DNA of 64,000 bases from an uncultured delta proteobacterium (GTDB lineage Bacteria; Desulfobacterota; Desulfobacteria; Desulfobacterales; JAHEIW01), in assembly GCA_963706575.1 (NCBI GenBank), contig CAVPNL010000001.1, positions 96,001 to 160,000 of the forward strand. Reading direction: 5' to 3'. This document shows positions 20,266-56,466 of this stretch, piece by piece. The stretch's first letter is position 1. The number at the start of each line of letters is the position of its first letter. Below the pieces are notes generated by a model that was given only the letters and a program-made list of their open reading frames with translations, was not told where the DNA came from and did not search any database. Position numbers and translations under genes: made by a program.

Positions 20266-20299
20266 TTTTATGAAAAGTAATTCCAAAAGAGGTCAATTC

Positions 20300-22621
20300 A
20301 TGAAAACACATCGCATCATTGGGAAACGGCTTCCCCGGATCGATTCAAAGGATAAAGTTACCGGGAAAGCGCTTTACACGGATGATATGTCCTTGCCGGG
20401 CATGCTATGCGGTTTGATCTTACGCAGCCCTTTGCCGCATGCCAAAATCATTCGTATCGATACATCGAAAGCCTTAAAAGTATCCGGGGTCAAGGCGATT
20501 GTAACCGCTGAGGACACGCCCAAAATTAAATTCGGCATTATTTCCAGATCGCCCAAATATATGGATGAGTACCCATTAGCTGTGGATAAGGTTCGCTTTA
20601 TCGGAGAGGAAGTGGCTGCTGTGGCAGCGGTCGATGCCGACGCTGCAATGGAAGCGTTGGACTTGATTCAAGTTCAATATGAAGAACTGCCGGCAGTATA
20701 CGACCCGGAGGAAGCCCGGAATCCGGCAGCCCCTCAAATTCACGAGCATGCCCCGCTGAACATTAGCCGTGAGTATCACATCAAAAGAGGCGACCCTGCC
20801 GCCGCTTTTAGCAAATGCGCACTGGTACGCGAAGACATATTTACAACCCAATCGGCCATTCATGCTTATATGGAGCCCCGGGTTGCCCTGGCTTACTGGG
20901 ACCAAGGCAGAGCGTTGACGGTTTATACATCAACCCAGACACCGTACTACGTTCAACAGCACCTGGGGCGGACCTTAGATATCAATCCGGATAACATCCG
21001 GGTGATAAAGCCCCATGTGGGCGGCGGTTTTGGCGGTAAATCAGATGGGTTGTCCGCGGTAGAATTTTGTGCAGCATTGCTGGCCAAACATACAGATCGG
21101 CCGGTGAAAATCGTCTGTTCGCGGGATGAAGAATTTACAGCTGCCAGAAGAAAACACCCGGTAAAGATCACCATGAAAACCGGTGTTAGCAAAACCGGAA
21201 TGATTTTGGCGCGACAGTGTAAAGCGGTGTTGGACGGTGGCGCATACTGCAGCCTGGGTCCGCTAACAACGATTTTAATGGGAACCTTTCAAACGCTGCC
21301 TTTCGGTTTTGAGCATTATCAATACGATGGTTACCGAATTTATACCAACAAGCCGCCCTGTGGGGCTATGCGGGGCCACGGTGGCCCCCAGATTCATTTT
21401 GCTCAGGATATTCAGTTAGATATGATCGCCGAAGCGTTGGGTTTGGATCCGGTGGAGATGGCGATGAAAAACGGTCTGCAAAAGGGAGATGAATCAGCGG
21501 CAGGCTTTAAAATCGTTAGCTCCGGGTTTCGAGAATGCCTGCAAAAGGTTTCGGCCGAGGCCGGGTGGAAGCAGAATAGAAAATCAAAAAATAAGGGGAG
21601 CAGCCCCAAAGCATATGGCATCGGCCTGGGGTGCGGCGGGTTTCCGTCCGGTGCGGGGTTTTACTTCAACAAAACGACTTCTGCCCATTCGTCCGTAATT
21701 ATAAAGGCCGGTGAAGGCGGCGGGTTAAATGTGCTTACCGGAGCCTCCGATATCGGCCAGGGATCTGACAGTGTGATCTGCCAGATCATTGCCGAGGTTT
21801 TGGGGCTGTCTTTGGAAGACATCCATCTGACAAGTGCAGATACCCACCTGACACCGCCGGATATGGGGACCTATTCGAGCCGGGTGACGGTCGCAGCCGG
21901 CAATGCAGCCTTAAATGCAGCCAAAGCCGCCAGGGATGAGATTTTTCGCATTGCGGCGGACCATCTGGAAGCAAATCCAGATGATCTAGTCGCCAATGAC
22001 CGCAGGATTTATGTCGATGGAAGCCCGGATCGATTCATATCCTTTGCCGATGCAGTCAATCAATATCAGAGAAAAAACGAGGGATCACCTTTGCTGGTCA
22101 AAGGTTCTTACAATTCTCCGGATCCATTGTCTCCCACCTACAGTTTTGGGGCGTATATATGCGAAGTTGAGGTCGATCTGAGAACGGGTGAGTTTAAAAT
22201 ACTCAGGTTTTCGGTGGCCCATGATTGTGGGCAACCGCTTAACCCCATGTCAGTGGAAGGGCAAATAGAAGGCTGTATCGGAATGGGCATGGGATATGCC
22301 ATCCAGGAACAACTGGATTTCGAAGATGGCCAGACCTTAAACCCGTCCTTTATGGGATATTCATTACCCACAGCCAACCAGATGCCAGAAATTAACATTG
22401 CCCATATCGTTACAGAGGATCCACACGGACCTTTTGGGGCCAAGGAAACCGGGGAGGGTTCTCTGGACCCGGCTGCACCTGCAATTTGCAACGCGATATA
22501 CAATGCGACGGGTGTGCGAATTATGGATCTCCCCGTCACAGCGGAGAAAATTTTAAAAGGATTAAAAAAAAAGGAGTCGCAGGATGCAAAATCGACTGAT
22601 CGAATTGACAGTAAACGGTGA
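20300..22621 (+). CDS. hcrA: Xanthine-dehydrogenase-family Mo subunit, 4-hydroxybenzoyl-CoA reductase alpha-like
   Basis: GGGFGGK, PPCGAMRGHG, G(T/S)YSSRVT and GPFGAKE motifs as in HcrA; partner subunits adjacent. Confidence 0.75.
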   Translation: MKTHRIIGKRLPRIDSKDKVTGKALYTDDMSLPGMLCGLILRSPLPHAKIIRIDTSKALKVSGVKAIVTAEDTPKIKFGIISRSPKYMDEYPLAVDKVRFIGEEVAAVAAVDADAAMEALDLIQVQYEELPAVYDPEEARNPAAPQIHEHAPLNISREYHIKRGDPAAAFSKCALVREDIFTTQSAIHAYMEPRVALAYWDQGRALTVYTSTQTPYYVQQHLGRTLDINPDNIRVIKPHVGGGFGGKSDGLSAVEFCAALLAKHTDRPVKIVCSRDEEFTAARRKHPVKITMKTGVSKTGMILARQCKAVLDGGAYCSLGPLTTILMGTFQTLPFGFEHYQYDGYRIYTNKPPCGAMRGHGGPQIHFAQDIQLDMIAEALGLDPVEMAMKNGLQKGDESAAGFKIVSSGFRECLQKVSAEAGWKQNRKSKNKGSSPKAYGIGLGCGGFPSGAGFYFNKTTSAHSSVIIKAGEGGGLNVLTGASDIGQGSDSVICQIIAEVLGLSLEDIHLTSADTHLTPPDMGTYSSRVTVAAGNAALNAAKAARDEIFRIAADHLEANPDDLVANDRRIYVDGSPDRFISFADAVNQYQRKNEGSPLLVKGSYNSPDPLSPTYSFGAYICEVEVDLRTGEFKILRFSVAHDCGQPLNPMSVEGQIEGCIGMGMGYAIQEQLDFEDGQTLNPSFMGYSLPTANQMPEINIAHIVTEDPHGPFGAKETGEGSLDPAAPAICNAIYNATGVRIMDLPVTAEKILKGLKKKESQDAKSTDRIDSKR

Positions 22622-23060
22622 GATTCGTGAGGTGGCGGTTAAAGCCAATGATACGCTTCTGGAGGTGCTGAGAGAAAAACTGAGTCTGATCGGTACCAAA
22701 GAAGCCTGCGGCATGGGTGAATGCGGCGCTTGTACTGTTTTAATCGATCGCAAGCCGGTGCTGTCCTGTCTTACCTTAGCCGTTGACGCAAACGGCAAAG
22801 AAATCATTACCATAGAAGGCGTATCCTCCCCAAAGGGTCTGGATGCGGTTCAGGAATCATTCATTAACCAGGGTGCGGTTCAATGCGGGTACTGTACGCC
22901 CGGGATGGTACTTACGGCCAAAGACCTTTTATCCCGCAACCCAAGCCCCAGCGAAGAACAAATCCGTGCAGCGATCTCAGGAAATTTATGCCGCTGTACA
23001 GGTTACACGAAGATTGTAGAAGCCATTCAGGCTGCGGCCGAGGGAGGTGTCAGCAAATGA
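22584..23060 (+). CDS. hcrC: 2x[2Fe-2S] subunit
   Basis: CGMGECGAC and QCGYC...CRC motifs. Confidence 0.8.
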   Translation: MQNRLIELTVNGEIREVAVKANDTLLEVLREKLSLIGTKEACGMGECGACTVLIDRKPVLSCLTLAVDANGKEIITIEGVSSPKGLDAVQESFINQGAVQCGYCTPGMVLTAKDLLSRNPSPSEEQIRAAISGNLCRCTGYTKIVEAIQAAAEGGVSK

Positions 23061-24055
23061 ACAGTAACCGGCTACCAAAGTTGACCTGCTTTGAACCCAA
23101 AACGATCGATGAGGCGGTCGAGATTAAAAAAGAGTTCGGAAAAGATGCCGTCATTTTGGCCGGCGGAACCGATGTCCTCCCGCTTCTCAAGCGCCGCAAC
23201 ATCGGCGCCCGAACGCTGCTCAATCTCAAAACCATTCCGGAATTAGGTCAGATTGAATCGAATGCTAACGGAAAAATCAAAATCGGGGCAACCACGACGC
23301 TACGGGATATCATCGATTCTGATTTGATCGTCGACGCATTTCCTCTTTTGGTTGAAGCGGCTGCTTCGGTTGCCTACAATCAAATCAGAAATATGGCGAC
23401 CCTGATCGGCAATCTCTGCCTAGACAATAAGTGCACTTACTACAATCAATCCAAATTTTGGTGGCAAACCCGGGCGGATTGCATCAAGCGTGGTGGAATT
23501 CAGTGTTATGCGGTCAAAGGCGGTGAACAATGTTTTGCTTTAGCTGTTGGTGACACCGTCCCCGCATTGATTGCCCTGGATGCAGAATTAAGCATCATTG
23601 GGCCCAATAGTGTACGCCGAATACCCGTGACGAAATTTTATACCGGAAACGGCCGCAAGCCCTATCAGCTAAATGATGATGAACTTGTTTGCGCTATTGA
23701 GCTGAGCGCTTCTTCTGATGGTTGGCGTAACGGATTTCTAAAAAAAAGTGTGCGCGGCGCTGTCGATTTTGCCCTCGCAGCCATGGCGATGCGCTTAAGG
23801 CCAAAGGGCCGCAAAATTGAAGACATTCGGATTGTTTTAAACGGGATTTCGGTAAAACCGATAGAGGCGAAAATGGCCCAGAGATACCTTATTGGGAAAG
23901 ACATCAACAAAGACACAATCGATGCGGCTGTTAAATTGATATTGAAGGAATCCGTTCCGCTATCTTCGATTGGGACTACAGTTGCGGTCCGCAGAAAAAT
24001 GATCGCGGCTATGTTCGAAGATCTTTTATATCGTTTAAATCCAAACCACTTCTAG
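23057..24055 (+). CDS. hcrB: FAD subunit with 4Fe-4S insertion
   Basis: AGGTD and QIRNMAT..GNLC motifs, plus the HcrB-type insert CTYYNQSKFW....C.K.GG..C........C. Confidence 0.8.
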   Translation: MNSNRLPKLTCFEPKTIDEAVEIKKEFGKDAVILAGGTDVLPLLKRRNIGARTLLNLKTIPELGQIESNANGKIKIGATTTLRDIIDSDLIVDAFPLLVEAAASVAYNQIRNMATLIGNLCLDNKCTYYNQSKFWWQTRADCIKRGGIQCYAVKGGEQCFALAVGDTVPALIALDAELSIIGPNSVRRIPVTKFYTGNGRKPYQLNDDELVCAIELSASSDGWRNGFLKKSVRGAVDFALAAMAMRLRPKGRKIEDIRIVLNGISVKPIEAKMAQRYLIGKDINKDTIDAAVKLILKESVPLSSIGTTVAVRRKMIAAMFEDLLYRLNPNHF

Positions 24056-30773: not shown

Positions 30774-32933
30774 ATGACTGAATTTAAATATTCCAATATC
30801 AAAAAGGAAATACAAACTTACGGATTTGACGGGGTTGTCAAAAGCCATTGCCGAATGTGTCACGGCGGCTGCGGAGTTCTAGTCTATACCAAAAACGGCA
30901 AAGTTGCCAAGATTGCCGGTGATCCGGATTGCCCCATTAATCACGGCACGCTTTGCAGCAAGGGGCTTGCATCGGCCCAGCTGGTATATCATCCGGATCG
31001 ATTGACCTATCCTGTTCGAAGAGTCGGACCCAAGGCAAGCGGCCAATGGGAGCGAATTTCATGGGATGAGGCCCTGAATCACATCGCTGAAAAGATTCTT
31101 GTCTATAAGGACCAATTCGGGGCTGAATCTGTTGTAATGGGTTACGGGACCGGCAGGGAGAACGAGGCGGTCATTTATCGTTTTGCCAATCTGCTGGGGA
31201 GCCCCAACGTTCTGACCGCAGGTCACTTTTGCTATGGCCCGCGAATTGCCACCAGCATTATCACCTGCGGAACCAACCCCATTGCCGATTATGAAAACCA
31301 CCCCCGCTGCATCATGGTCTGGGGCAACAATCTGGTGATCAGCAACCCGGATTGTTACAAGGGCGAACCGTTTTCGGTCAGTCTGAATAAAGGCGCCAAA
31401 CTCATTGCGGTTGACCCGCGGTTGACCCGCATCGCGGCTCGCGCGGATGTATGGCTGCAACTCAGGCCCGGAACGGATGCCGCCCTTGCCCTGGGGATTT
31501 TGAATGTGATTGTGAATGAGGAGCTCTACGACCGGGAATTTGTGGAAAATTTCGTGTACGGTTGGGAGCCGTTCGTAAAGCGGGTCAACGAATACCCTTT
31601 GGAGAAGGTTGAAGAAATCACCTGGGTTTCCAAAGAAAAAATTCAGCAGGCCGCGCGGCTGTTCGCAACCACCAAACCGGCGGTTGTTCAGTGGGGGGTG
31701 GCCATTGAACAGCAGATCAATTGTGCCGATAACGACCGCTTGCTGATGGCACTCATGGGGATTACCGGAAACATCGATGTGCCCGGCGGGCAAGTCCTGT
31801 TTCAGACGCCTAGAATCCGGAATGTGGGCTATTTCGGCGCCCACCGGATGCTGCCCGATACGCAGCGTGAAAAACGTTTAGGCGGTGACCGGTTTCGCCT
31901 GGCCGGAAATTTTGCCATCATCAATCCAAAGTGTGTCTGGGACGCTATTCTCGATGAAAAGCCCTATCCGGTGAAAATGCTTTTTTTTATCAGCTCAAAT
32001 CCCGTCATGACCCGGGCCAATGCCAAAGAGGTTTACCGGGCGCTCGAAAAAGTGGATTTTATGGCGGTTTCTGATTTTTTTATGACCCCGACGGCTGAAC
32101 TGGCGGATATAGTGTTGCCGGCGGCCACCTGGCTTGAAATGGACTACATCGGAGATTACTGGAAACGACACGGTTACATTTTACCCAGACGTAAAGTGGT
32201 TCAGGTGGGGGAATGCCGGTCCGATCATGAAATGCTCAATGATCTGGCCCATCGTGTGGGCCAGGGGGAGCACTGGTGGGATGATTTTGAACAGGCGCTG
32301 GATTGGATATTGGAACCGCTGGGGATTTCATGGCAGGATTTCAAGCAGATGGACTACATGCGCGGCGAGGTGATCAACCAAAAGTATAAAGTAAAGGGAT
32401 TCAGCACACCGAGCCGGAAGTTTGAGCTATATTCCACCTCGCTAGAAAAATGGGGCTATGACCCCCTCCCGCAACACCGGGAACCACCAGAAAGCCCCTA
32501 CAGTACTCCTGACCGTTTCAAAGACTATCCGTATATCCTGATTACCGGCCGCAGGCAGCCCGGGTTTTTTCATACGGAAAACAGGCAGATCTCCTGGCTG
32601 CGTGAGCTTCACAGAGACCCAACAGTGGAAATCCATCCCCTGACCGCCAAGAAGGAAGGCATCAATGAGGGCGACTGGGTGGTTATTGAATCTCCCCGGG
32701 GTAAGGTCAGACAGCGGGCCAAATTATTTGAAGGTATGGACCCGCGAGTGGTTTCTGCCGAGCATGCCTGGTGGTTTCCTGAAAAAAATGACCCCGCTCA
32801 CGGATGGGAGGAATCCAACATCAATATTTTGACCGACAATGCATACGAGACCTGCGACCCCGCTATGGGCGCGACCCATGTCAGGACTCTCCTTTGCAGA
32901 ATATATCCTGAAAATCAAGGAACCGACTCATGA
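30774..32933 (+). CDS. Mo/W-bisPGD oxidoreductase, acetylene-hydratase-like family, paralog 1
   Basis: CRMCHGGC...C 4Fe-4S motif, AGHFC metal-ligand Cys, KPYPVK, FFMTPTAELAD; no Tat signal. Confidence 0.85.
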   Translation: MTEFKYSNIKKEIQTYGFDGVVKSHCRMCHGGCGVLVYTKNGKVAKIAGDPDCPINHGTLCSKGLASAQLVYHPDRLTYPVRRVGPKASGQWERISWDEALNHIAEKILVYKDQFGAESVVMGYGTGRENEAVIYRFANLLGSPNVLTAGHFCYGPRIATSIITCGTNPIADYENHPRCIMVWGNNLVISNPDCYKGEPFSVSLNKGAKLIAVDPRLTRIAARADVWLQLRPGTDAALALGILNVIVNEELYDREFVENFVYGWEPFVKRVNEYPLEKVEEITWVSKEKIQQAARLFATTKPAVVQWGVAIEQQINCADNDRLLMALMGITGNIDVPGGQVLFQTPRIRNVGYFGAHRMLPDTQREKRLGGDRFRLAGNFAIINPKCVWDAILDEKPYPVKMLFFISSNPVMTRANAKEVYRALEKVDFMAVSDFFMTPTAELADIVLPAATWLEMDYIGDYWKRHGYILPRRKVVQVGECRSDHEMLNDLAHRVGQGEHWWDDFEQALDWILEPLGISWQDFKQMDYMRGEVINQKYKVKGFSTPSRKFELYSTSLEKWGYDPLPQHREPPESPYSTPDRFKDYPYILITGRRQPGFFHTENRQISWLRELHRDPTVEIHPLTAKKEGINEGDWVVIESPRGKVRQRAKLFEGMDPRVVSAEHAWWFPEKNDPAHGWEESNINILTDNAYETCDPAMGATHVRTLLCRIYPENQGTDS

Positions 32934-33391
32934 AAACCTATGACCTGGAAATTGATAACGAAGCCTGCTGGGGTTGTAAGACCTGTGAAGTTGCCTGTAA
33001 ACAGGAGAACAGGGCACCTGACGGTGTCAAACTCATTTCTGTTTCGGAAGACGGGCCCGGGATGATCGCTGGAAAGCTCGATTTTGTTTACCGGGTAAAT
33101 CTGTGCAGACACTGCGATGACGCACCCTGTGCTGACGCCTGCCCCGAAGAAGCGATTGTCAGGCGATCCGACGGTATGGTGGTCATGGATTATGATCTGT
33201 GCACCGGTTGTCAGTCCTGCATCTCAGCGTGTCCGTACGATGCCATTGAATTTGACGATAATAAAGACATTGCCCAAAAGTGCAATCTTTGTCATCACCG
33301 GATTGAAAACGGTCTCATCCCCGCCTGCGCGGATAATGTCTGTCCGGCGCATTGCATATATTTTTCAATCAACGACACCCCTCCGCCTTGA
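32930..33391 (+). CDS. DmsB-like multi-[4Fe-4S] subunit
   Basis: CWGCKTCEVAC, CRHCDDAPC...C, CTGCQSCISACP and KCNLC motifs; ATGA overlap with upstream gene. Confidence 0.9.
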   Translation: MKTYDLEIDNEACWGCKTCEVACKQENRAPDGVKLISVSEDGPGMIAGKLDFVYRVNLCRHCDDAPCADACPEEAIVRRSDGMVVMDYDLCTGCQSCISACPYDAIEFDDNKDIAQKCNLCHHRIENGLIPACADNVCPAHCIYFSINDTPPP

Positions 33392-34198: not shown

Positions 34199-35386
34199 AT
34201 GAGTATTGCAGCAACATTTCAGCGAGCATACAGAGCAAAAAAACTGGATCCTTATCCGCTGGAGATTCTCAAAAGAGTCGATCGCCCCACAACAAGGGTC
34301 ATAGACCATGAAATTCAACGGGTCGATGAGCGTGAAAGTGGTTTTAACCGGGCGCTGCGAGGCGACTGGGGACCCCAGCTTTCAAAGGAGAGGCATCGCT
34401 TTGTCGCCAAACATCCGTTATCGGGCGCTCTGGTCAATATGCAGTTCACCCTGAGTGAGCTTGTAGATGGTATGGCCGCCGCCAAAGAAGCCCCCGGCAC
34501 GGGCGACCCGGTTAAGATGGCGCGCCATATCAAAGAAGCCGCTTATTTTTTGCGCGCCGATCAGGTCGGGATCTGTAAATTGCCACCTTATGCGGTTTAC
34601 AGCCACGGCATGGACACCGGGGAACCCGTTGAACTGAATCATCGTTATGCCATTGCCATTTTAATCGATCAGGATTTTAAAACGGCTGATGCCAGCGTTG
34701 GAAACGACTGGATCAGCAATTCGATGAGTTTTTTGGCCTATTCCACCTCGGGATTTATTGCCTGTATCCTGGCCGACTATATTCGCAGACTGGGCTACTC
34801 CGCGCGTGCCCATCATGCCCGCAATTATCAAGTCGTGCTGCCGCCTATTTTGCTCTGGGCCGGTCTGGGAGAGATGTGCCGCATCGGAGATATCGTGCTC
34901 AATCCGTTTTTAGGACCGAGATTTAAGGCCGCCGTAGTTACCACCGATCTGCCCCTGGCCATAGACAAGCCCATCGATTTTGGGGTTCAGGACTTCTGTT
35001 CAAAATGCAAACAATGTGCGCGCTATTGTCCGTCGGGTGCGATTCCTTTTGGTGACAAGGTGATTTATAACGGCTACGAAAAATGGCCGAATGATATGGG
35101 AAAATGCACCAAACAGCGGGTGGGAAACAAGCAAGGCTCGGGTTGCGGCGTTTGTGTATGCGTCTGTCCCTGGAACAAACCCTACACACCGTTCCATCGA
35201 TTTATACAGTGGTCCATGCGCAACATCCCCGTAGCCCGGAACTTTGCCGTATGGGGAGATGAGCTTTTTGGATACGATCAACCCAATCTTAAAAACAAGT
35301 GGTGGCTGGATCTGGAGGATGTGGATGGAGAACTGGTGGTTCCAGCCCATGCAGGCTCCAGAGGTAACTTCCGGGAACCCAAATAA
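34199..35386 (+). CDS. rdhA: Reductive dehalogenase, soluble catabolic (NpRdhA/BhbA-like) type, no Tat signal
   Basis: YPLE.LKRVDRPTT, RVDERE..F.RA, AGLGE..R.G, LNPFLGPRFK...TTDLPL, CSKCKQCARYCP and CGVCVCVCPW motifs. Confidence 0.88.
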   Translation: MSIAATFQRAYRAKKLDPYPLEILKRVDRPTTRVIDHEIQRVDERESGFNRALRGDWGPQLSKERHRFVAKHPLSGALVNMQFTLSELVDGMAAAKEAPGTGDPVKMARHIKEAAYFLRADQVGICKLPPYAVYSHGMDTGEPVELNHRYAIAILIDQDFKTADASVGNDWISNSMSFLAYSTSGFIACILADYIRRLGYSARAHHARNYQVVLPPILLWAGLGEMCRIGDIVLNPFLGPRFKAAVVTTDLPLAIDKPIDFGVQDFCSKCKQCARYCPSGAIPFGDKVIYNGYEKWPNDMGKCTKQRVGNKQGSGCGVCVCVCPWNKPYTPFHRFIQWSMRNIPVARNFAVWGDELFGYDQPNLKNKWWLDLEDVDGELVVPAHAGSRGNFREPK

Positions 35387-36582: not shown

Positions 36583-38031
36583 ATGACTAATCTGTTAGGT
36601 TACATCGTTATTCTGGGACTTGCGCTCCAGGCTTTTATCGGACTCGCATTTTTGATTTCCTCCATCTGGGAAAAGGAAGAGCGGGCCTCGATATTTGCCG
36701 GCATTCAATTTTTAGGCATGTTCGGCTTACTGATTCTTTTTATCTACTGGCAGGCGAGCCGATTTTTCGAATCCGGTACCGGCCTTTTCATCTTAATCAG
36801 TTCTTTTATCGTCGGGATTCTGGCTGTCGTTTTTTGTGTGAGGCAGACACCGGTGAATCAACGCGCTTTGGAAGGCACCCGGGGTTTGATTGTCGGTGAG
36901 GTCAAACGTTTTGATGAGCGCAAGCACGTTTTTGCCAGAAACCGGGCCCTTAAACCGGGATCGGATCAATACAATGCGTTCTACAAGGAAAACCCGGAAC
37001 TTGAAGCAGGCGATGCCGCCAGAAGAGAAAAAGGCGGACCCATGGGCCATCCGGGCCGAGTAGACCGACCTCATGACGGCCCCAATGTGGCGGGCACCCT
37101 GGCATCGCTGTCGCTCTGCCTGTGGCTTTCATCTTTAGATAAGGTTAAGCCCCAGGCCCATCCGGAGTGTAAAGGTAAAAAGGTCGACATGAGTCCTGAA
37201 GAAGCCACTGTGCGGGTTAAAGGCTTCGCTAAAAATAGGGGCGCTGTTTTGGTGGGAGTCACCGAGATCAACCCCCTTTGGGTTTTTTCGCACAAAGGCG
37301 AGATTTTCCACGAAAATTGGGAGGACTGGGGCAGGCCCCTCGAAGCCAAGCATAAATATGCCATCGTGTTTGCCGAGGAGATGGATTTTGAAATGATCGG
37401 ATCGGCTCCGCATACACCGACGGTCATGGAAAGCATGAGCGCTTATGCCAAAGGCGCATTTATTGCCGCTCAACTTGCTAACTTCGTTGTCAATATGGGT
37501 TATTCGGCAACGACCGATCAACTGCGCTACTATGAAGAGTTGCTGGTTCCCCTGGCGGTGGATGCAGGCCTGGGAGAAGCGGGCCGCCTCGGGTATCTAT
37601 TGACACAGAAATATGGCCCGCGCGTGAGGTTGAGTGCTGTTACAACTGATCTTCCGCTGGTCCCCGACAAGCCGGTCGATATTGGTGTTGAACATTTTTG
37701 CAAAATTTGTAAAAAATGTGCAGTCTGTTGCCCTTCAAACTCCATACCGCTGGATGACCAAAAGGAGGTCAACGGGACGCTGCGCTGGAAATTAAATGCT
37801 GAAACCTGCTTTGACTACTGGGGGAAAGTCGGCACCGACTGCAACGTCTGCATGAAGGTGTGCCCCTGGAGTCATGCGAATACAATGCCCCACCAGTTGA
37901 TAAAGTGGCTGGTGAGTCGCAACAGCATTTCAAGACACCTCTTTGCGGTCATGGATGATATTTTTTACGGCAAACGCCCCAAGGCCAGACCGGCCCCCAA
38001 ATGGGCGCAGTTTAAACCCTATCATAAATGA
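36583..38031 (+). CDS. rdhA: Reductive dehalogenase with about three N-terminal transmembrane helices
   Basis: Hydrophobic first ~86 aa, no twin-arginine motif. RFDER..VFAR, DAGLGE.GR.G, GPRVRL..VTTDLPL, CKICKKCAVCCP and CNVCMKVCPW motifs. Confidence 0.88.
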   Translation: MTNLLGYIVILGLALQAFIGLAFLISSIWEKEERASIFAGIQFLGMFGLLILFIYWQASRFFESGTGLFILISSFIVGILAVVFCVRQTPVNQRALEGTRGLIVGEVKRFDERKHVFARNRALKPGSDQYNAFYKENPELEAGDAARREKGGPMGHPGRVDRPHDGPNVAGTLASLSLCLWLSSLDKVKPQAHPECKGKKVDMSPEEATVRVKGFAKNRGAVLVGVTEINPLWVFSHKGEIFHENWEDWGRPLEAKHKYAIVFAEEMDFEMIGSAPHTPTVMESMSAYAKGAFIAAQLANFVVNMGYSATTDQLRYYEELLVPLAVDAGLGEAGRLGYLLTQKYGPRVRLSAVTTDLPLVPDKPVDIGVEHFCKICKKCAVCCPSNSIPLDDQKEVNGTLRWKLNAETCFDYWGKVGTDCNVCMKVCPWSHANTMPHQLIKWLVSRNSISRHLFAVMDDIFYGKRPKARPAPKWAQFKPYHK

Positions 38032-38125
38032 TATTTTACAAATACGGCTTTGTACATCCGTACAAAGAAGAGATAAGTGCAACCCTATAATCTAACATAA
38101 TCACACCTACGAAAAAGGCTTGCTT

Positions 38126-39460
38126 ATGGACGTTAAACAAAAATATTGGAATCCTGTTCTGGAAACCCTGCCGCAGGAAAAAATTCATCAACTGCAGCTC
38201 AAAAAGTTCAAGCAGATTTTCAGGTGGACCTATGAGCATTCAAAATTCCACCGGCAGCTTTATGAGCAGGCTGGTATAAAGCCCGATGATATCCGGTCTT
38301 TTGAGAATATCCGGCAGGTACCCAAAGTGGAAAAGGCCATGATGCGGGACATCCAGCGTAAGGAGCCGTTTCCGTATGGTGATGCCCTCTGTGTGCCGCT
38401 TGATGAGGTCACCATCTTTCGCCAGACAAGCGGCACCACCGGCCAGCCCGTCTACCAGCCCGACACCTGGCAGGATTGGGAATGGTGGATGGAGTGCTGG
38501 TCGTATATCCTCTGGGCTCAGGGATACCGCCCGCAGGATCGGGTGTTTATGCCTTTTGGTTATAATATATTTGTGGCCTTCTGGGCCGGCCATTATGCTG
38601 CTGAAAAGATCGGTTGCGAAGTGATACCGGGAGGAGTTCTGGATACAAAGGCGCGGATTTTAAAGATCCAGGAACTGCAGGCCACAGCCATGATGGGCAC
38701 CCCCACCTATATTCTGGGGATGGCCGAAACTGCCCGCCTGAAAATGGGTATAGACCCCGCCCAGTTGCCGATCAGCAAAATTACCTGTGCCGGTGAAAGC
38801 GGTGCCAGCATTCCCAGCACCAAAAAGCGGCTGGAAGAGGCCTGGGGTGCCAAGGTTTACGATCACGCCGGCGCAACCGAAATCGGCGCCTGGTCATTTG
38901 AATGCACCGAACAACCCGGCGGCATGCATGCCAATGAAGCCTTGTTTCTGGTGGAAATCGAAGATTTTGAAACCGGTGAGATCATCGAGACGCCCGGGCG
39001 CAGAGGCAAAATGGTCATCACCGCCCTGGACCGTATGGCCCAGCCCTGTGTACGTTTTGATTCCAAAGATGTCATCGAATGGGCGGCCGAGCCGTGTTCC
39101 TGCGGCCGGACCTCACGCTTGATCAAGGGCGGCGTGGTGGGCCGGGCGGATGATATCACCAAGGTAAAAGGGGTGCTGCTGGCGCCATCGGCGATTGAAG
39201 AAGTGGTGCGCAGCATCGAAGGTTTGGGCGATGAATATGAAGTCATCGTGGAAAAAGCGGGGGATTCCGATCGGATCAAGCTCAGGGTGGAGGTGTTGCC
39301 GCAGGCCGAGGAACAATGCACGCTGATAGAAACCGAGCTGGTCGACCAGCTCAGGCTGAAGACCAATTTGCGGTATGATATTGAAATCTGCGGTTACGAA
39401 ACCCTGCCGCGGTATGAAGTCAAGGCCAAGCGTTTTAAAGACTTACGCAAAAAAAAGTAG
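38126..39460 (+). CDS. paaK: Phenylacetate-CoA ligase family protein
   Basis: TSGTTG, GATE, C.CGRT and GRADD..KVKGV motifs. Confidence 0.85.
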   Translation: MDVKQKYWNPVLETLPQEKIHQLQLKKFKQIFRWTYEHSKFHRQLYEQAGIKPDDIRSFENIRQVPKVEKAMMRDIQRKEPFPYGDALCVPLDEVTIFRQTSGTTGQPVYQPDTWQDWEWWMECWSYILWAQGYRPQDRVFMPFGYNIFVAFWAGHYAAEKIGCEVIPGGVLDTKARILKIQELQATAMMGTPTYILGMAETARLKMGIDPAQLPISKITCAGESGASIPSTKKRLEEAWGAKVYDHAGATEIGAWSFECTEQPGGMHANEALFLVEIEDFETGEIIETPGRRGKMVITALDRMAQPCVRFDSKDVIEWAAEPCSCGRTSRLIKGGVVGRADDITKVKGVLLAPSAIEEVVRSIEGLGDEYEVIVEKAGDSDRIKLRVEVLPQAEEQCTLIETELVDQLRLKTNLRYDIEICGYETLPRYEVKAKRFKDLRKKK

Positions 39461-40541: not shown

Positions 40542-41981
40542 ATGGAAAGCGGTTTGCGGCTGAAATTGTTAACTTCAGAAGAGATAACGACGATTTTTGA
40601 AAAGTGCCAAGATGTATTGTCAAAGAAAGGTATGAAGATTGATCATCCGCATGTCTTGAAAATGCTGGACAAAGCGGGTGCACGGGTTGATTTTAAAAGT
40701 CGTCAGGTTCGGTTCCCTAAGGACATCATCGGAGCGGCACTGGATAATGTGCCGCACTGTTTTCTGCTGGCGGGCAGAGATGAACGCCATGATATGGTTC
40801 TCCCTGACCCCAACGGTGTCTTTCATGTCCGCAATGGTTCAGGTGCTTTTAGATATTTCGATCCCGAATCGGATGTGTTCCGCTATGTAACCTTGGCAGA
40901 TGTAAAAATCTGTGCCCAATTCGTGGAAGCCTTGGACGAAATAAGCTTTTGCGCCTTTCCTTCTCCTACCGATGCGCCGAAACAAACCGCCGATATCCAT
41001 GCGCTCAAAGTATTATTAGAAAATACGTCCAAACATATAAATGTTCAACCCTACAGTGCTGAGAGCGTTGAATATCTTTTAGCATTAGCCCAGGTTGTTG
41101 CTGGGTCTGCGGCTCTTAGCAAGCGGCCTGTCATCAGCTTGAGCCCCAACGCTTTCACACCCCTTGGTTTAAAGGCCTATGACGTAGAGGTCATTCTTCA
41201 GTCGACTCGTCTTGGCGTGCCGATACATTGCTGGAGCTTGCCCAGTGCCGGGGCGACTTCCCCGATCACTATCGCCGGAAGCATCCTTCTGATGGGAGTC
41301 GAAATATTATGCATGATCGTTTTGAGTCAGTTGTTGCAGCCCGGTACGCCTGTTATTGCCAACCCGTTCCCCTTTACGACAGACATGGCAACCGGGAATA
41401 GCCTTAATTCGAGTGTTGAAGTTACACTGACAACAGCGGCTGCTGTTGATTATATAAAGCGTGCTTACCGCGTTCCGGTTCATACATATGGGTTTGGCAC
41501 GGATTCTCCAGTAACAGATGGTCAGGCATCGACAGAAACATCGCTGAAGGGGTTGATGGCGTCTTTAGCGGGGGCTGATTTGTTAAGTGGAGCCGGGATG
41601 GTTGAATCGATCAATGGGTTTAGTCTTATTCAATTGCTAGTCGATAATAACCTGGTAGGCCTTTTAAAACGGCTTAACAGAGGGGTGAAGGTTGATGATG
41701 ATACCCTGGCCTGGAAAGAAATTATGAGCACGGATCCGGGCAGCAATTTTCTTGAAAGAATTCATACTTTTGAGCATTGCCGCGAAGCATTGCGTCCTAA
41801 ATTTTTTATCCAAAAAGAATGGGAAGTATGGAACTCAGAAGGAAAGAAGGATCTATATGCCCGTGCTTTTGAAGCCTACAAAGTTTTAAAAGATGGTTTG
41901 CAGCCGGATCCTTTACCCGATGATATTCGAAAAGAACTAAACGCGATCGTAAAAAAAGCTGATGAAAAACTGGCAAAATAG
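40542..41981 (+). CDS. mttB: Trimethylamine methyltransferase superfamily protein (non-pyrrolysine)
   Basis: NTSKH, AGATSP.T.AG, TDS...DGQA..E and AG.VES motifs; no in-frame TAG. Confidence 0.85.
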   Translation: MESGLRLKLLTSEEITTIFEKCQDVLSKKGMKIDHPHVLKMLDKAGARVDFKSRQVRFPKDIIGAALDNVPHCFLLAGRDERHDMVLPDPNGVFHVRNGSGAFRYFDPESDVFRYVTLADVKICAQFVEALDEISFCAFPSPTDAPKQTADIHALKVLLENTSKHINVQPYSAESVEYLLALAQVVAGSAALSKRPVISLSPNAFTPLGLKAYDVEVILQSTRLGVPIHCWSLPSAGATSPITIAGSILLMGVEILCMIVLSQLLQPGTPVIANPFPFTTDMATGNSLNSSVEVTLTTAAAVDYIKRAYRVPVHTYGFGTDSPVTDGQASTETSLKGLMASLAGADLLSGAGMVESINGFSLIQLLVDNNLVGLLKRLNRGVKVDDDTLAWKEIMSTDPGSNFLERIHTFEHCREALRPKFFIQKEWEVWNSEGKKDLYARAFEAYKVLKDGLQPDPLPDDIRKELNAIVKKADEKLAK

Positions 41982-42021
41982 CCATCTGTGCGATCTTCTG
42001 GAGAAATTCGAGGAGGAATTA

Positions 42022-42153
42022 ATGGAAACCATTCCAGAAATAATGGCCGCTGTTTTGCTGACCGGTCACGGTGGTTTCGACCGGCTGGAATACCGCACGG
42101 ATGTTCCGGCACTGGAGGGCAAAATTGAGCGGCCTTCGAAAATAGATGGGTAA
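42022..42153 (+). pseudogene. N-terminal fragment of an MDR-family alcohol dehydrogenase
   Basis: AGGAGG RBS, then METIPEIMAAVLLTGHGGFDRLEYRTDVP; similarity to the family then stops abruptly. Confidence 0.65.
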
Positions 42154-42169
42154 ACGTCTGGAGGTTTTT

Positions 42170-43291
42170 ATGCCGCATATACTGGGATCCAACGAACTTC
42201 TGGAGGATGTTCATAAAAGGGAATTATGCATCGGCTGCGGTGCCTGTGTGGATATTTGTCCGTATTTTAAAAATTATAAAGGCAAGACAGCCCAGCTGTT
42301 TCCGTGTACCTTAGAACAGGGTCGTTGCTATGGATACTGCCCTAAAGCCGAGGTCGACCTGGATGAGCTCTCACAGGCTATCCAGGGTGTGCCTTATGAC
42401 GGCAGCCCCTTGGGAGACTATCGGGAAGTGCTGGCTGCACGGGCGGGTGGCAAAATTAAAAAGGGCACATTTCAATCCGGCGGTACGGTCACGGCGTTGC
42501 TTACCTTTGCATTCAAGGCCGGTTCGATCGACGCTGCCGCATTGACGGATCGCAAGGTCTTGACCCCGGTGCCCCGCATCGTGACGGACTGGAAGGACGT
42601 AACGCGATGCGCCAGTTCCAAATTCATGGCCGCACCCACGATATCTTCGGTAAATCTGGCGGTTCGGCAAGGCTACCAGAGCATCGGGGTGGTGGGAACC
42701 CCCTGCCAGGTGGTGGCCGTGGCTCAGATGAAGACCAACCCCCTGGCAGAAGAAGCCCATAAGGTTCCGCTGTCCCTTACGGTGGGCTTGTTTTGTAACT
42801 GGTCCCTGGACACCCGACAGTTGATCGATTTATTATCGCAAAAACTGGATATATGCGGAATCGTGGGAATGGACATTCCGCCACCGCCGGCCAATATCCT
42901 GGTTCTGGATACCGCCACCGGCAGGGTGGAGATTTCGCTTTCCGAAATCAAACCGCTGATCCCGCATACCTGTTTTATCTGTCCGGACATGACTTCGGAA
43001 TTGGCCGATGTTTCAGTGGGGATGTTTGAAGGACGGCCGGGATGGAACACCCTGATCCTGCGCTCCGCCAAGGGTGTTGAGCTCATTGAACACGCCCGCA
43101 GGGAAGGCTATGTCGAAACCGAGGATTTTCCGGCAGAAAATCTAAAATATCTCTCTCGGGCGGCAGCCGAGAAGAAAGATCGAGCCCTGCGAACACTGAT
43201 CCGCAGGGAATTGATTAATAACAAAGGAGAGGAACGCGCTGCGGTGCGAATACCGCAGACTGTTGTCGATCGGATACTGAAAAAGAAGTGA
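42170..43291 (+). CDS. FrhB/FdhB-family Fe-S flavoprotein
   Basis: CIGCGACVDICP, QSGG.VTALL, VGTPCQ, GLFC and C.ICPD.TSELADVSVG motifs. Confidence 0.88.
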   Translation: MPHILGSNELLEDVHKRELCIGCGACVDICPYFKNYKGKTAQLFPCTLEQGRCYGYCPKAEVDLDELSQAIQGVPYDGSPLGDYREVLAARAGGKIKKGTFQSGGTVTALLTFAFKAGSIDAAALTDRKVLTPVPRIVTDWKDVTRCASSKFMAAPTISSVNLAVRQGYQSIGVVGTPCQVVAVAQMKTNPLAEEAHKVPLSLTVGLFCNWSLDTRQLIDLLSQKLDICGIVGMDIPPPPANILVLDTATGRVEISLSEIKPLIPHTCFICPDMTSELADVSVGMFEGRPGWNTLILRSAKGVELIEHARREGYVETEDFPAENLKYLSRAAAEKKDRALRTLIRRELINNKGEERAAVRIPQTVVDRILKKK

Positions 43292-43454
43292 CTAAAGTGA
43301 GCTAAAATGCCTAAAGTGCCTAAAGTTATTGTCTCGCTTCGCTCGATCTCTTTTAATATGATCGTTTTACCCTGTTGCTCAGCCCTGAGGCTCTCGACGG
43401 GCAGGATTCCTTAACTTTAGTCACTTTAGTTCACTTCTCACTTTAGCTCACTTT
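43286..43454. repeat. Repeat family A, longest copy, with nested insert
   Basis: Arms AAGTGACT-AAAGTGAGCT-AAAATGCCT-AAAGTGCCT-AAAGTT and AACTTT-AGTCACTTT-AGTTCACTT-CTCACTTT-AGCTCACTTT. The first unit contains the frhB stop codon. Confidence 0.88.
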
Positions 43455-43473
43455 CTTTTAAAATGGAGGCATT

Positions 43474-45408
43474 ATGTCTATAATTTCGTATGGCCGGAAA
43501 GGGGAGCGGTACCTGGTCATGGGCAACGAGGCTATCGCCCGCGGGGCGCTGGAGGCCGGCGTCAGTGTCGCCGCCGGTTATCCCGGCACCCCTTCATCCG
43601 AAATCATCGAAAGCCTGGCAAAGGTTTCAAAAGACCAGAATCTTTACGTGGAATGGTCGGTGAATGAGAAAGTGGCCATGGAGGTGGCCGCCGCCGCCTC
43701 CTTTGCCGGCCTGAGATCGCTGTGCGTCATGAAGCAAAACGGCGTCAACGTCGGATCGGATTTCCTTTTGCATCTAGCGCTGACGGGCGTCCGGGGCGGA
43801 ATGGTGCTGGTGCACTGTGATGATCCCGGGGCACTTTCCAGCGCCAATGAGGGGGAATCCAGACATTTTGCACGGATGCTGGAACTTCCGTTACTGGAAC
43901 CCGGCGATTTCCAGGAAGCTAAAGATATGATAAAAATGGCCTTTGAGCTCTCCGAAGAGATCCACAATGTTGTCATGGTTCGCAGTGTGACCCGGTTGTC
44001 CCATGCCAGCGGCAACGTGGTTTTCGGCGAGCTTAAACCAACGGAGAAAAAAGCCTTTTTTAAACACGGCGGATTTATACTGGATTCTCTGGAAGGTCCC
44101 ATGGCCAGCTTGCCGGTACCTTATCGACACGAAAAACAGCAAGAAAAATTAAAACAGGCCACTGCCCGGTTTGAAGAATCTCCGTTTAATTCTTACAGTG
44201 GCCCTGAGGCGCCGGAGATTTTATTGATTACCAGCAGTGCCTGTCATCTTTACAGCAAAGAGGCCATCAGCTTTTTGGGTGTTGCCGATCGGGTCGGTTT
44301 ACTGAAGCTGGGCACAACCTGGCCGCTGCCGCCCAGGTTGATGGAGAAATATCTTGGCATCACCGATAAGATTCTGATTGTCGAAGAAGTCATTCCGTTT
44401 CTCGAAGAAAATATCAAAATCCTGGCGGCAGAGCTGGCATCCAGGATTGGCCCCAAAACCTTTTATGGCAAACGCACGGGCGATGTCCCCTCCACCAATG
44501 AAATGAATCCGGATCTGGTGGCGACGGCCGTATCCAGGATTTTAGATATGAATTACCAGGCCGTACCCGAAGCTTATGCCAAAAGGTCCCAGGAAGTCGT
44601 TCTTTCAGGCGCCCCTGGCCGCGATATGACGTTTTGCGCCGGCTGCCCCCATCGGGCCTCGTTCTGGACCATCCACAACGCCCTGCAGATGGACGGCCGG
44701 GAGGGTTTTGTCTGCGGTGATATCGGCTGCTATTCCTTGGCCGTGCTTCCCACCGGTTTCAGTACATTGAAGACGCTGCATGCCATGGGAAGCGGTGTCG
44801 GACTTGCCAGCGGCTTTGGCAAACTGGGTCAATTCGGCATGAATCAGCCCGTTCTGGCCACCGTGGGGGATTCCACTTTTTTCCATGCAGTCCTGCCGGC
44901 TCTGGTCAACGCCATTCACCACCAATCAGATATCACTATCGTGGTGCTGGATAACAGCGGAACAGCGATGACCGGTTTTCAACCCCATCCGGGCCTACCG
45001 GTGGATGCCGGCGGTGATGAAGTTCCGGCTCTGGACGTGGCCAAAATATGTGAAGCCATGGGCGCCACGGTAAGAATCAGCGATCCCTTTGATATCGAAA
45101 AAACCCAACAAACTATTTTTGAGCTCTTTGAAATCAAAGGACTCAAAGTTCTGGTGTTGAAACAGATGTGTGCGCTGAGTCCGGAAAAGAAGGCCCAAAA
45201 AATGTTTGATGTATCTGTGGATGAAAATATCTGTCTGGGCCAAAGCTGCGGGTGCAATCAGCTCTGTACCCGGATATTCAAATGCCCCGGTCTGAATTGG
45301 GATAAGGATAAGCGGGTGTCTCAAATCGATGAAGTCATCTGTGTCGGCTGCGGGGTGTGCGCATCGATCTGCCCCTCGGGCGCAATCCAGAAAAAGGAGG
45401 TGGCTTAA
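43474..45408 (+). CDS. iorA: Indolepyruvate:ferredoxin oxidoreductase alpha subunit
   Basis: GNEAIARG, YPGTPSSE, FCAGCPHR, GDIGCY and GDSTFFH motifs; C-terminal ferredoxin. Confidence 0.93.
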   Translation: MSIISYGRKGERYLVMGNEAIARGALEAGVSVAAGYPGTPSSEIIESLAKVSKDQNLYVEWSVNEKVAMEVAAAASFAGLRSLCVMKQNGVNVGSDFLLHLALTGVRGGMVLVHCDDPGALSSANEGESRHFARMLELPLLEPGDFQEAKDMIKMAFELSEEIHNVVMVRSVTRLSHASGNVVFGELKPTEKKAFFKHGGFILDSLEGPMASLPVPYRHEKQQEKLKQATARFEESPFNSYSGPEAPEILLITSSACHLYSKEAISFLGVADRVGLLKLGTTWPLPPRLMEKYLGITDKILIVEEVIPFLEENIKILAAELASRIGPKTFYGKRTGDVPSTNEMNPDLVATAVSRILDMNYQAVPEAYAKRSQEVVLSGAPGRDMTFCAGCPHRASFWTIHNALQMDGREGFVCGDIGCYSLAVLPTGFSTLKTLHAMGSGVGLASGFGKLGQFGMNQPVLATVGDSTFFHAVLPALVNAIHHQSDITIVVLDNSGTAMTGFQPHPGLPVDAGGDEVPALDVAKICEAMGATVRISDPFDIEKTQQTIFELFEIKGLKVLVLKQMCALSPEKKAQKMFDVSVDENICLGQSCGCNQLCTRIFKCPGLNWDKDKRVSQIDEVICVGCGVCASICPSGAIQKKEVA

Positions 45409-45411
45409 CCC

Positions 45412-46035
45412 ATGAAAAATGCGAGTCTGCCATGTGATCCTTATAATGTCATTATTACCGGTGTCGGAGGGCAGGGCAATGTCATGGCCTCCCGCGTTGT
45501 CGGCAACATGTTGTCCCGCAAGAACTTGAATATCACCATTGGCGAGACCTTCGGTGCTTCCCAGCGCGGCGGGTCGGTGATGAGCCATTTGCGCATATCA
45601 GCGGAGTCTTACTGGTCGCCGCAGATTCCCCGAGGCAAGTGCCACCTGGTCATTTCTTTAGAACCCACCGAAGCCATCCGGGTGTTGATGAACTACGGAA
45701 ACCCGAGCGTCAGGGTTCTTTGCAATACACGGCCGGTTCACGCCATCGGCGTGATATCCGGTGAGCAGCGCTACCCGTCTTTGGAAGAGGTCAAATCATG
45801 GATAGAGGAATTGTCTGAAGATTGCTGGTTTTTAGCGGCGACCGAAAGGGCGCTGGAGCTGGGAAATCCGATTTTGGGCAACATCATGATGATCGGCGCT
45901 GTCGCCGGCATCGGCGTATTGCCGCTGGATAGAGACAGCTTTGAAGCCGCCATCTCTGAAGCGCTGTCCGGCGACAAACTGGCGCTAAACCTCAAGGCCT
46001 ATGATTTAGGTGTGCGTATGGTAAAGGGCATTTGA
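45412..46035 (+). CDS. iorB: Indolepyruvate:ferredoxin oxidoreductase beta subunit
   Basis: GVGGQG and GASQRGGSV.SH.R motifs. Confidence 0.93.
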   Translation: MKNASLPCDPYNVIITGVGGQGNVMASRVVGNMLSRKNLNITIGETFGASQRGGSVMSHLRISAESYWSPQIPRGKCHLVISLEPTEAIRVLMNYGNPSVRVLCNTRPVHAIGVISGEQRYPSLEEVKSWIEELSEDCWFLAATERALELGNPILGNIMMIGAVAGIGVLPLDRDSFEAAISEALSGDKLALNLKAYDLGVRMVKGI

Positions 46036-55993: not shown

Positions 55994-56455
55994 CTATTCC
56001 TCCTTTGGGGTTGTCATCTCAAAAACAGCCGCAACGTTCTTTTTGCTGCCAAAACGGATACAGCCGGTTGGACAGACAGTCATACAGGCCGGCGATTTGC
56101 TTTCGGCGAGCCGCTGAATGCAGAGATCGCACTTTACGGCAATCTCTTGATGGTCTTCGAATTGCATGGCGCCAAAGGGACAGGCTTCTATGCATTCCCT
56201 GCACCCGATACAAAGATCATCGTCAATTAAAACAATACCTTGTTCATTTCTGGAAATCGCTTCAACCGGACAGGCCTCTTTGCAGGGGGCTTTGGCACAA
56301 TGGTGGCAGTAGATGGGGATAAAATCGGAAATTTTTTCAAGCACTCGCACCAGTCGGGGTCCCACTCCCAGTGCGTGTTCCTGCTTGCAGGCAACCTCAC
56401 AGGCATGACAGCCCATACAGTCCTTCTTGCGGAATACCAACGAGATCTTATCCAT
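55994..56455 (-). CDS. DmsB-like multi-[4Fe-4S] subunit
   Basis: CMGCHACEVAC, CHHC..APC...C, CIGCRECIEACP and KCDLC motifs. Confidence 0.9.
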   Translation of the reverse strand: MDKISLVFRKKDCMGCHACEVACKQEHALGVGPRLVRVLEKISDFIPIYCHHCAKAPCKEACPVEAISRNEQGIVLIDDDLCIGCRECIEACPFGAMQFEDHQEIAVKCDLCIQRLAESKSPACMTVCPTGCIRFGSKKNVAAVFEMTTPKEE

Positions 56456-56466
56456 CTCCTTTCCTC

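Follow-up and report, generated by a model that had tools for sequence, protein, structure and literature searches.

A soluble molybdoenzyme-ferredoxin pair of an uncultured Desulfobacterales bacterium, a candidate reductive dehydroxylase of aromatic acids

What could be the function of a relative of acetylene hydratase (AH) in which the catalytic aspartate is replaced by histidine and which is encoded next to a ferredoxin-like subunit? This question is raised by a gene pair at positions 30774-33391, forward strand, of a stretch of 64,000 nucleotides (hereafter, the window) from the genome of an uncultured Desulfobacterales bacterium (GenBank assembly GCA_963706575.1, contig CAVPNL010000001.1, positions 96,001 to 160,000). 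An initial annotation described the pair in these terms and proposed a cytoplasmic reductive dehydroxylase or another new oxidoreductase. We arrive at a similar answer by a partly different route: on balance, the comparisons described here make it probable that this is a soluble, cytoplasmic alpha-beta enzyme for the reductive dehydroxylation of an aromatic acid.

The catalytic subunit (30774..32933; 719 amino acid residues; hereafter, the query) contains the Pfam domains Molybdop_Fe4S4, Molybdopterin and Molydop_binding which, together with an N-terminal 4Fe-4S motif and a Cys ligand of the metal, place it in the dimethyl sulfoxide reductase superfamily of molybdenum or tungsten enzymes with a bis-molybdopterin guanine dinucleotide cofactor (Mo/W-bis-MGD) and, within this superfamily, in the AH/catechol dehydroxylase radiation; in a scan of the NCBIfam models it scored above no cut-off. 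The N-terminal motif, CRMCHGGC (30849..30872), supplies the cluster ligands C26, C29 and C33, with C61 as the fourth, and the metal ligand Cys153 lies in CYGPR (31230..31244). The second gene (32930..33391, same strand) encodes a DmsB/TtrB-like electron-transfer subunit of 153 residues with 17 Cys, 16 of them within four 4Fe-4S motifs, which matches the TtrB and DmsB models with scores below their cut-offs; the two reading frames overlap in ATGA, with AAGGAA 7 nucleotides before the start of the second. The best sequence match of the catalytic subunit in PDB is AH (2e7z, 408 bits, the next match being at 230). In this alignment, CQSCDINC of AH corresponds to CRMCHGGC and AMYMC to AGHFC, so that His30 (codon 30861-30863) takes the place of Asp13 and Cys153 that of Cys141, a pairing that recurs in the alignment with the full AH sequence from locus L199; next to the ligand, Tyr154 stands for Ile142 and Arg157 for Thr145 of AH. 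The AH motifs that the initial annotation had cited are therefore correct, as is its observation that the ligand is kept and the Asp is not.

The motifs and the partner are conserved. Among the best 120 homologues of the catalytic subunit (82-92% identity), 119 have CxxCHGGC, the 120th beginning inside the motif with the His kept; AGHxCYGPR is present in all 120, and an RRxF motif of the twin-arginine translocation (Tat) signal in none. Orthologous loci numbered 80 (73-94% identity), mostly in Desulfobacterota, with others in Actinomycetota, Alpha- and Gammaproteobacteria, Spirochaetia and NC10; cultured carriers include Desulforhopalus singaporensis DSM 12130 (L032, 76%) and strain NaphS2 (L013, 83%). 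The distribution is patchy, orthologues with more than 70% identity being found in 3 of 251 genomes of one order and in 5 of 201 genomes of one class, and the best match in a plasmid search did not exceed 41% identity. The ferredoxin gene lies directly 3' of the enzyme gene in 73 of the 80 loci, and in the remaining seven the contig ends within 50 bp of the gene; no membrane anchor was found 3' of the ferredoxin in the orthologous loci read. Given that the four-cluster partner is fixed whereas none of the three AH loci obtained by a class-wide search has such a ferredoxin, a redox role is well supported. The pair is confirmed as a real and conserved one, predicted to form a soluble Mo/W-bis-MGD enzyme with an Fe-S partner. 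Searches for expression signals gave little: promoter-like sites (4 versus 5.3 expected) and terminator-like sites (7 versus 4.9 expected) provided no signal, RNA runs contained at most 9% of the words, and contigs of relatives in three RNA libraries span parts of both genes, an observation that cannot show transcription or a single transcript.

The AlphaFold model of the catalytic subunit (predicted local distance difference test score, pLDDT, 79; predicted template modelling (TM) score 0.83) has 2e7z as its top Foldseek match (TM 0.87). AH leads the PDB matches by default, however, because no catechol dehydroxylase is among the sequence or fold matches listed. The predicted complex of the enzyme with the ferredoxin scored 0.94, versus 0.00 for the best control, with contact agreement between runs of at least 89% and partner pLDDT of at least 88; the mark used for this score is passed by 116 of 157 solved pairs and by 2 of 215 mismatched pairs. 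In this complex, partner residues 17-25 are placed against enzyme residues 59-66, and the first cluster motif of the partner comes to lie next to the cluster ligand C61, which is among the latter. Since similar complexes have already been solved, the prediction is to be read as likeness and not as binding. Members of the query clade also begin with a conserved stretch of about 20 extra residues (window 30774-30830), which both AH and two sister paralogues of the same genome lack; in the predicted complex, this extension rests on the ferredoxin.

So is the His at the Asp13 site a peculiarity of this enzyme? In AH, Asp13 hydrogen-bonds the metal-bound water, and the Asp13Ala replacement abolishes activity (PMC12096430). 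Among the best 150 representatives of clusters at 50% identity, Cys occupies the Cys153 column in 145, and in the 131 with a readable motif the residue at the Asp13 site is His in 44, Gly in 14, Tyr in 11, Pro in 9, Ser in 8 and Asp in only 5. As judged from these alignments, His is the rule in the radiation and not a special loss of the AH aspartate, and the framing of the query as an AH with the Asp replaced is not supported. The Eggerthella catechol dehydroxylases that the initial annotation had named have Gly-Lys instead of His: the first columns of the alignments supplied with PMC7028382 show CRxCGKxEC for Dadh, Hcdh and Cadh. It is the Gordonibacter enzymes Cldh and Dodh and a protein labelled eadh1 that read GCH[EN]GC in the same columns, and, in the supplement of that paper, the enzymes of the Streptomyces CC-1065 and yatakemycin clusters have CRMCHGGC, identical to the query, and the protein of the 3,5-dihydroxybenzoate cluster of Thauera AR-1, represented by its first residues, has CRSCHGGC. 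In mechanistic terms, His30 could serve as a second-shell acid/base in proton transfer. One Gordonibacter protein (L139, G001:C4:238758-240863) does have Asp here; it groups with AH with support of 100 and is a gut relative of true AH.

For phylogenetic analysis, references were picked by motif: the counterparts of Cldh, Dodh and eadh1 from G. pamelaeae CCUG 55131, the Streptomyces enzymes, Eggerthella-type proteins from genomes G043 and G059, and AH from G160 and G138. They were named by eye, by comparison of their N-termini with the supplement of PMC7028382 or with 2e7z, and the Eggerthella-type rows are relatives of the assayed proteins. A search of the genome collection with an AH DNA pattern gave 11 matches with no named AH carrier among them, and a single metagenome match to this pattern was rejected as AH because no molybdoenzyme is encoded there. 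In the FastTree phylogeny (197 of 198 rows), the query clade, the two host paralogues and the Streptomyces enzymes are joined with support of 0.956. An IQ-TREE analysis of 64 chosen rows recovers the query-Streptomyces group with a Shimodaira-Hasegawa-like approximate likelihood ratio test (SH-aLRT) value of 85 and unites the query, Streptomyces, Gordonibacter and Eggerthella enzymes to the exclusion of AH with 93; in a 53-row tree, the respective values are 97 and 94. This dehydroxylase branch, for which the values of 93 and 94 are unstarred and come without bootstrap, also contains many unassigned proteins. The Gordonibacter clade has support of 100, with the query outside it, and a single clade of the query group and the AH group is rejected by the approximately unbiased test (p-AU 0.019). 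BLAST scores with the query range from 539 bits for a Streptomyces enzyme (L160) through 489 for eadh1, 460 for Cldh and 438 for Dodh to 382 for AH.

The trees can be complemented with shared motifs. When five motifs are scored (His or Gly-Lys at the Asp13 site, GTxR, CxxxR, [NH]xD and F[HN][ST]xxR), the query, Cldh, Dodh and eadh1 have all five, the Eggerthella types four and AH none, and at least four are present in 18 of the 150 cluster representatives; in the more specific forms GTxR, CxxPR, NxD and FH[ST]ExRQ, they are common to the query and the dehydroxylases. Neither the query nor any of the aligned dehydroxylases has a 24-residue insert of the AH branch, which we take to be part of the loop that in AH closes the usual funnel. 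On these sequence comparisons, the query is nearer to the aromatic dehydroxylating enzymes than to AH. As for the initial annotation, its view of a cytoplasmic two-subunit redox enzyme distinct from AH stands, given the fixed partner, the rejected AH grouping and the lack of a Tat signal or anchor. Its translationally coupled ferredoxin holds for the partner and for the ATGA overlap seen here but not as a general rule, a 4-base overlap occurring in 30 of the 73 enzyme-ferredoxin loci and a gap of at least 140 bp in 13.

How, then, does the query compare with the described dehydroxylases? The nearest named branch in three trees is that of the Streptomyces CC-1065/yatakemycin enzymes (38-42% identity), which, like the query, have the HxCxxPR ligand loop, no Tat signal and a length of about 700 residues, and one of which has been linked by knock-out to reductive dehydroxylation (Wu 2017, as cited in PMC7028382). 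They differ in that no ferredoxin of the query type is encoded within 6 kb in any of 21 Streptomyces and Kitasatospora loci, in the lack of equivalents of AH Trp293, Trp472 and Arg606, all three of which the query keeps, and in their biosynthetic setting; their role as dehydroxylases is putative and purely genetic. The Thauera aromatica AR-1 gene has been linked by knock-out to growth on 3,5-dihydroxybenzoate and belongs to the cluster of an oxidative pathway (PMC7028382); the protein, which stands outside our trees, shares its N-terminal motif with the sister paralogue of the query at 56467-58557. The Gordonibacter-type enzymes (Dodh, Cldh and the G. pamelaeae Hcdh; 35-39% identity) resemble the query in consisting of two cytoplasmic subunits (PMC11887054), with neither Tat signal nor anchor, and in their His and all five motifs, and 3,4-dihydroxyphenylacetate, which we suggest below for the query, is the substrate of Dodh. 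However, their N-terminal cluster motif is without its first Cys (xPGCH), the catalytic subunit being described as devoid of this motif (PMC11574389), and their partners are smaller (110-125 residues; in the case of Dodh, 121 residues with 8 Cys). Conversely, the Eggerthella-type enzymes (Dadh, Hcdh, Cadh) share with the query the N-terminal 4Fe-4S motif, a four-cluster partner and the Cys ligand in CxxPR but carry a Tat signal and a membrane anchor (PMC11585353), have Gly-Lys in place of His and are about 1000-1100 residues long. The predicted architecture of the query, with the full cluster motif, a four-cluster partner and His but no export signal or anchor, thus fits neither gut type.

Could the genomic neighbourhood help in narrowing down the substrate? 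In the window, the pair has an upstream gap of its own and is preceded by unrelated genes on the other strand. Context was compared over 84 loci (the 80 orthologous loci and four from genome searches), 65 of which had 2.5 kb of room downstream. A PaaK-like ligase gene lies directly downstream, with its start within 1.6 kb, in 14 of the 84 loci, from Actinomycetota, Desulfobacterota, Spirochaetia and Alpha- and Gammaproteobacteria, and nine of these ligases, from the first three lineages, are 53-93% identical to one another and belong to one subfamily. The gene directly upstream of the orthologue is of the IclR type in 8 loci and of the AraC type in 5; the four AraC proteins scanned all have HpaA (4-hydroxyphenylacetate regulator) as their best model. 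In genome G947, a single strand encodes a 912-residue Mo enzyme with Fe-S and membrane-type subunits, followed by PadG, PadH and PadI, all above cut-off, then a ligase, an arylpyruvate-type oxidoreductase, a second ligase and an AraC gene and, at the end, 11 kb beyond the 912-residue enzyme, a 74% identical orthologue of the query with its ferredoxin and a third ligase. The 912-residue enzyme is a PadB candidate by its position and by the usual architecture of PadB, although no PadB model matched. Taken together, the ligase, the regulators and the pad cluster favour a hydroxylated phenylacetic acid as the candidate substrate, and we tentatively suggest 3,4-dihydroxyphenylacetate, in which case the role would be convergent with that of Dodh.

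Under this scenario, ferredoxin or a different low-potential donor would supply the electrons, which would reach Mo/W(IV) by way of the partner's four clusters and the N-terminal cluster of the enzyme. The metal would bind the leaving hydroxyl while the adjacent hydroxyl tautomerizes, oxygen atom transfer and rearomatization would release the product, and the resulting monohydroxy acid could then be activated by the PaaK-like ligase for anaerobic breakdown. The same combination of tautomerization and oxygen transfer has been proposed for Dadh (see also 10.1101/2025.01.17.632430).

Several observations weigh against this interpretation. There is no characterized orthologue, and all the references are only 35-42% identical to the query, and at such distances the chemistry is known to change in this family (AH itself is at 34%); the Streptomyces and Thauera roles are known to us from genetics and second-hand, through PMC7028382. 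The deep branches of the trees are short and supported by SH-aLRT only, the five motifs describe rather than test the relationship because they were chosen after the alignment had been seen, and CxxPR is present in polysulfide reductase as well. Residues 150-167 and 185-197 are not reliably modelled, with pLDDT below 50 around the ligand loop, so the pocket cannot be read. As for the context, the ligase is absent at 51 of the 65 loci with room for it, the PaaK-like gene of the window is 4.7 kb away from the pair and belongs to a different subfamily (about 30% identity), the HpaA scores are 105-130 bits versus a cut-off of 275 and no HpaA match was found in the host genome, and among five orthologue-bearing genomes tested, PadG is above cut-off in none and PadI in one.

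With these caveats, which other activities deserve consideration? The context fixes the class of the substrate better than the direction of the reaction, and a four-cluster partner would suit both directions, so that a different oxygen transfer on an arylacetate or its coenzyme A (CoA) ester, either water-dependent hydroxylation of the ring or side chain or loss of the alpha-hydroxyl adjacent to a carbonyl group (compare corticoid dehydroxylation), is the most serious competitor even if we consider it unlikely; the alpha-ketol dehydroxylation of a non-catechol reported for a related gut enzyme (PMC11574389) and the oxidative setting of the Thauera homologue are in its favour, whereas all biochemically characterized relatives on the query side of the tree are reductive catechol dehydroxylases and no anchor that could serve a quinone acceptor was found 3' of the ferredoxin in the loci read. 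In most loci, the pair is alone among unrelated neighbours, and the clade is conserved across phyla to an extent reminiscent of housekeeping genes, as might befit a stand-alone cytoplasmic reductase of a non-aromatic oxygenated compound, such as a sulfoxide or an N-oxide, with the ligase linked in some lineages only. We find this improbable, however, because one ligase subfamily travels with the enzyme in three phyla, models of S- and N-oxide reductases score far below cut-off, and the distribution is patchy.

The two remaining readings appear very improbable. A non-redox hydratase in which His takes over the function of Asp13 would account for AH leading the solved structures in both sequence and fold comparisons and for the conservation of the cluster ligands and of the equivalents of Cys141, Lys48, Trp293, Trp472 and Arg606; it would have to accommodate not only the loss of activity in Asp13Ala but also the changes at Ile14, Ile113, Ile142 and Trp179, the missing insert, the separate branch and a partner subunit, AH being a monomer. 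A soluble form of the phenylacetyl-CoA:acceptor oxidoreductase PadBC is suggested by the PaaK-like ligases and the pad cluster among the neighbours, and by the host, which has padEFGHI-like genes (G000 C1:348678-353493, apparently split into short frames) but in whose genome nothing closely matches the PadB candidate of G947. Yet G947 possesses both the orthologue and a separate 912-residue enzyme with its subunits directly ahead of padGHI, and because identity between this enzyme and the query is no more than 23%, over 265 residues, the query is not PadB but would act beside it.

Several other genes of the host and its relatives bear on the surroundings of the pair. The host, with a genome of the sediment type of Desulfobacterales, carries at least six genes for full-length proteins of the radiation. 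One of these, a sister paralogue of the query in the window (55994-58557, reverse strand; enzyme of 696 residues at 56467-58557, 58% identical, CRSCHGGC), has its own four-cluster ferredoxin and lies between acyl-CoA ligase genes and ATP-binding cassette transporter genes; a third His-type paralogue (C5:22522-24633), beside IclR and tripartite ATP-independent periplasmic (TRAP) transporter genes, forms with it the sister branch of the query. In locus L008 (4899-10671), such a paralogue and an orthologue, each with its ferredoxin, stand in tandem amid IclR, two PaaK-like ligases and a TRAP transporter. A further host protein (G000 C12:65939-68245), on the Gordonibacter-type branch and with the motif WSAGPGCH, adjoins an aldehyde:ferredoxin oxidoreductase-like gene. 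Downstream of the pair, on the forward strand, a GntR regulator lies between two reductive dehalogenase (RdhA)-like genes (34199-35386 and 36583-38031), each of which scores above the cut-off of TIGR02486. The product of the second starts with a hydrophobic stretch in its N-terminal part, and a PaaK-like ligase gene (38120-39460) comes next; RdhA-like genes also occur near the orthologues in L021, L027 and L028. The block of lipoprotein, RdhA and PaaK genes was considered as a part of the system and dismissed as inherited gene order because it is confined to seven loci at 88-92% identity. Elsewhere on this strand, a three-gene cluster of the xanthine oxidase family (20270-24055) has the alpha and beta subunits of 4-hydroxybenzoyl-CoA reductase as its best models, below cut-off, and a single run (40542-46035) comprises an MttB-like methyltransferase (below cut-off), an FrhB-like Fe-S protein and an IorAB-like oxidoreductase.

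Some elements of this picture have precedents. A soluble pair of catalytic and Fe-S subunits has already been described for the Gordonibacter-type enzymes (PMC11887054), and the His itself is no surprise; environmental homologues were listed as uncharacterized in 2020 (PMC7028382), PMC10100899 and PMC5109826 provide family background, and the available parts of PMC11061730, PMC4148979, PMC13416013, PMC12016498 and PMC6308299 contain nothing on the query clade. The literature searched, in which subscription papers are thinly covered, yielded no publication on this clade or on a His at the Asp13 site; what the His does may already be resolved in a paper, cited as submitted, on the active site of a catechol dehydroxylase.

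The reductive dehydroxylation of an aromatic acid can be extended, as a possibility that we put forward with reserve, into a broader scenario in which the query represents a third architecture of catechol dehydroxylases, with its own N-terminal cluster, a soluble four-cluster partner and no export, and with a catabolic rather than respiratory role. Such an enzyme would convert 3,4-dihydroxyphenylacetate, or a similar acid derived from plants or tyrosine, to a monohydroxy acid that enters anaerobic aromatic breakdown via a dedicated ligase, both in sulfate reducers of sediments and in four further lineages. On the dehydroxylase side of the family, the His would then act as the general acid/base, with Asp13 of AH as a special case. 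The biochemically characterized bis-MGD catechol dehydroxylases that we found in print all come from two gut genera, whereas the query clade consists of a small soluble pair conserved in environmental bacteria of several phyla, cultured strains included. If it does act on hydroxylated phenylacetates, this pair would be a new entry step for plant-derived phenolics into anoxic carbon cycling and would offer a simple system for testing the role of the residue at the Asp13 site.

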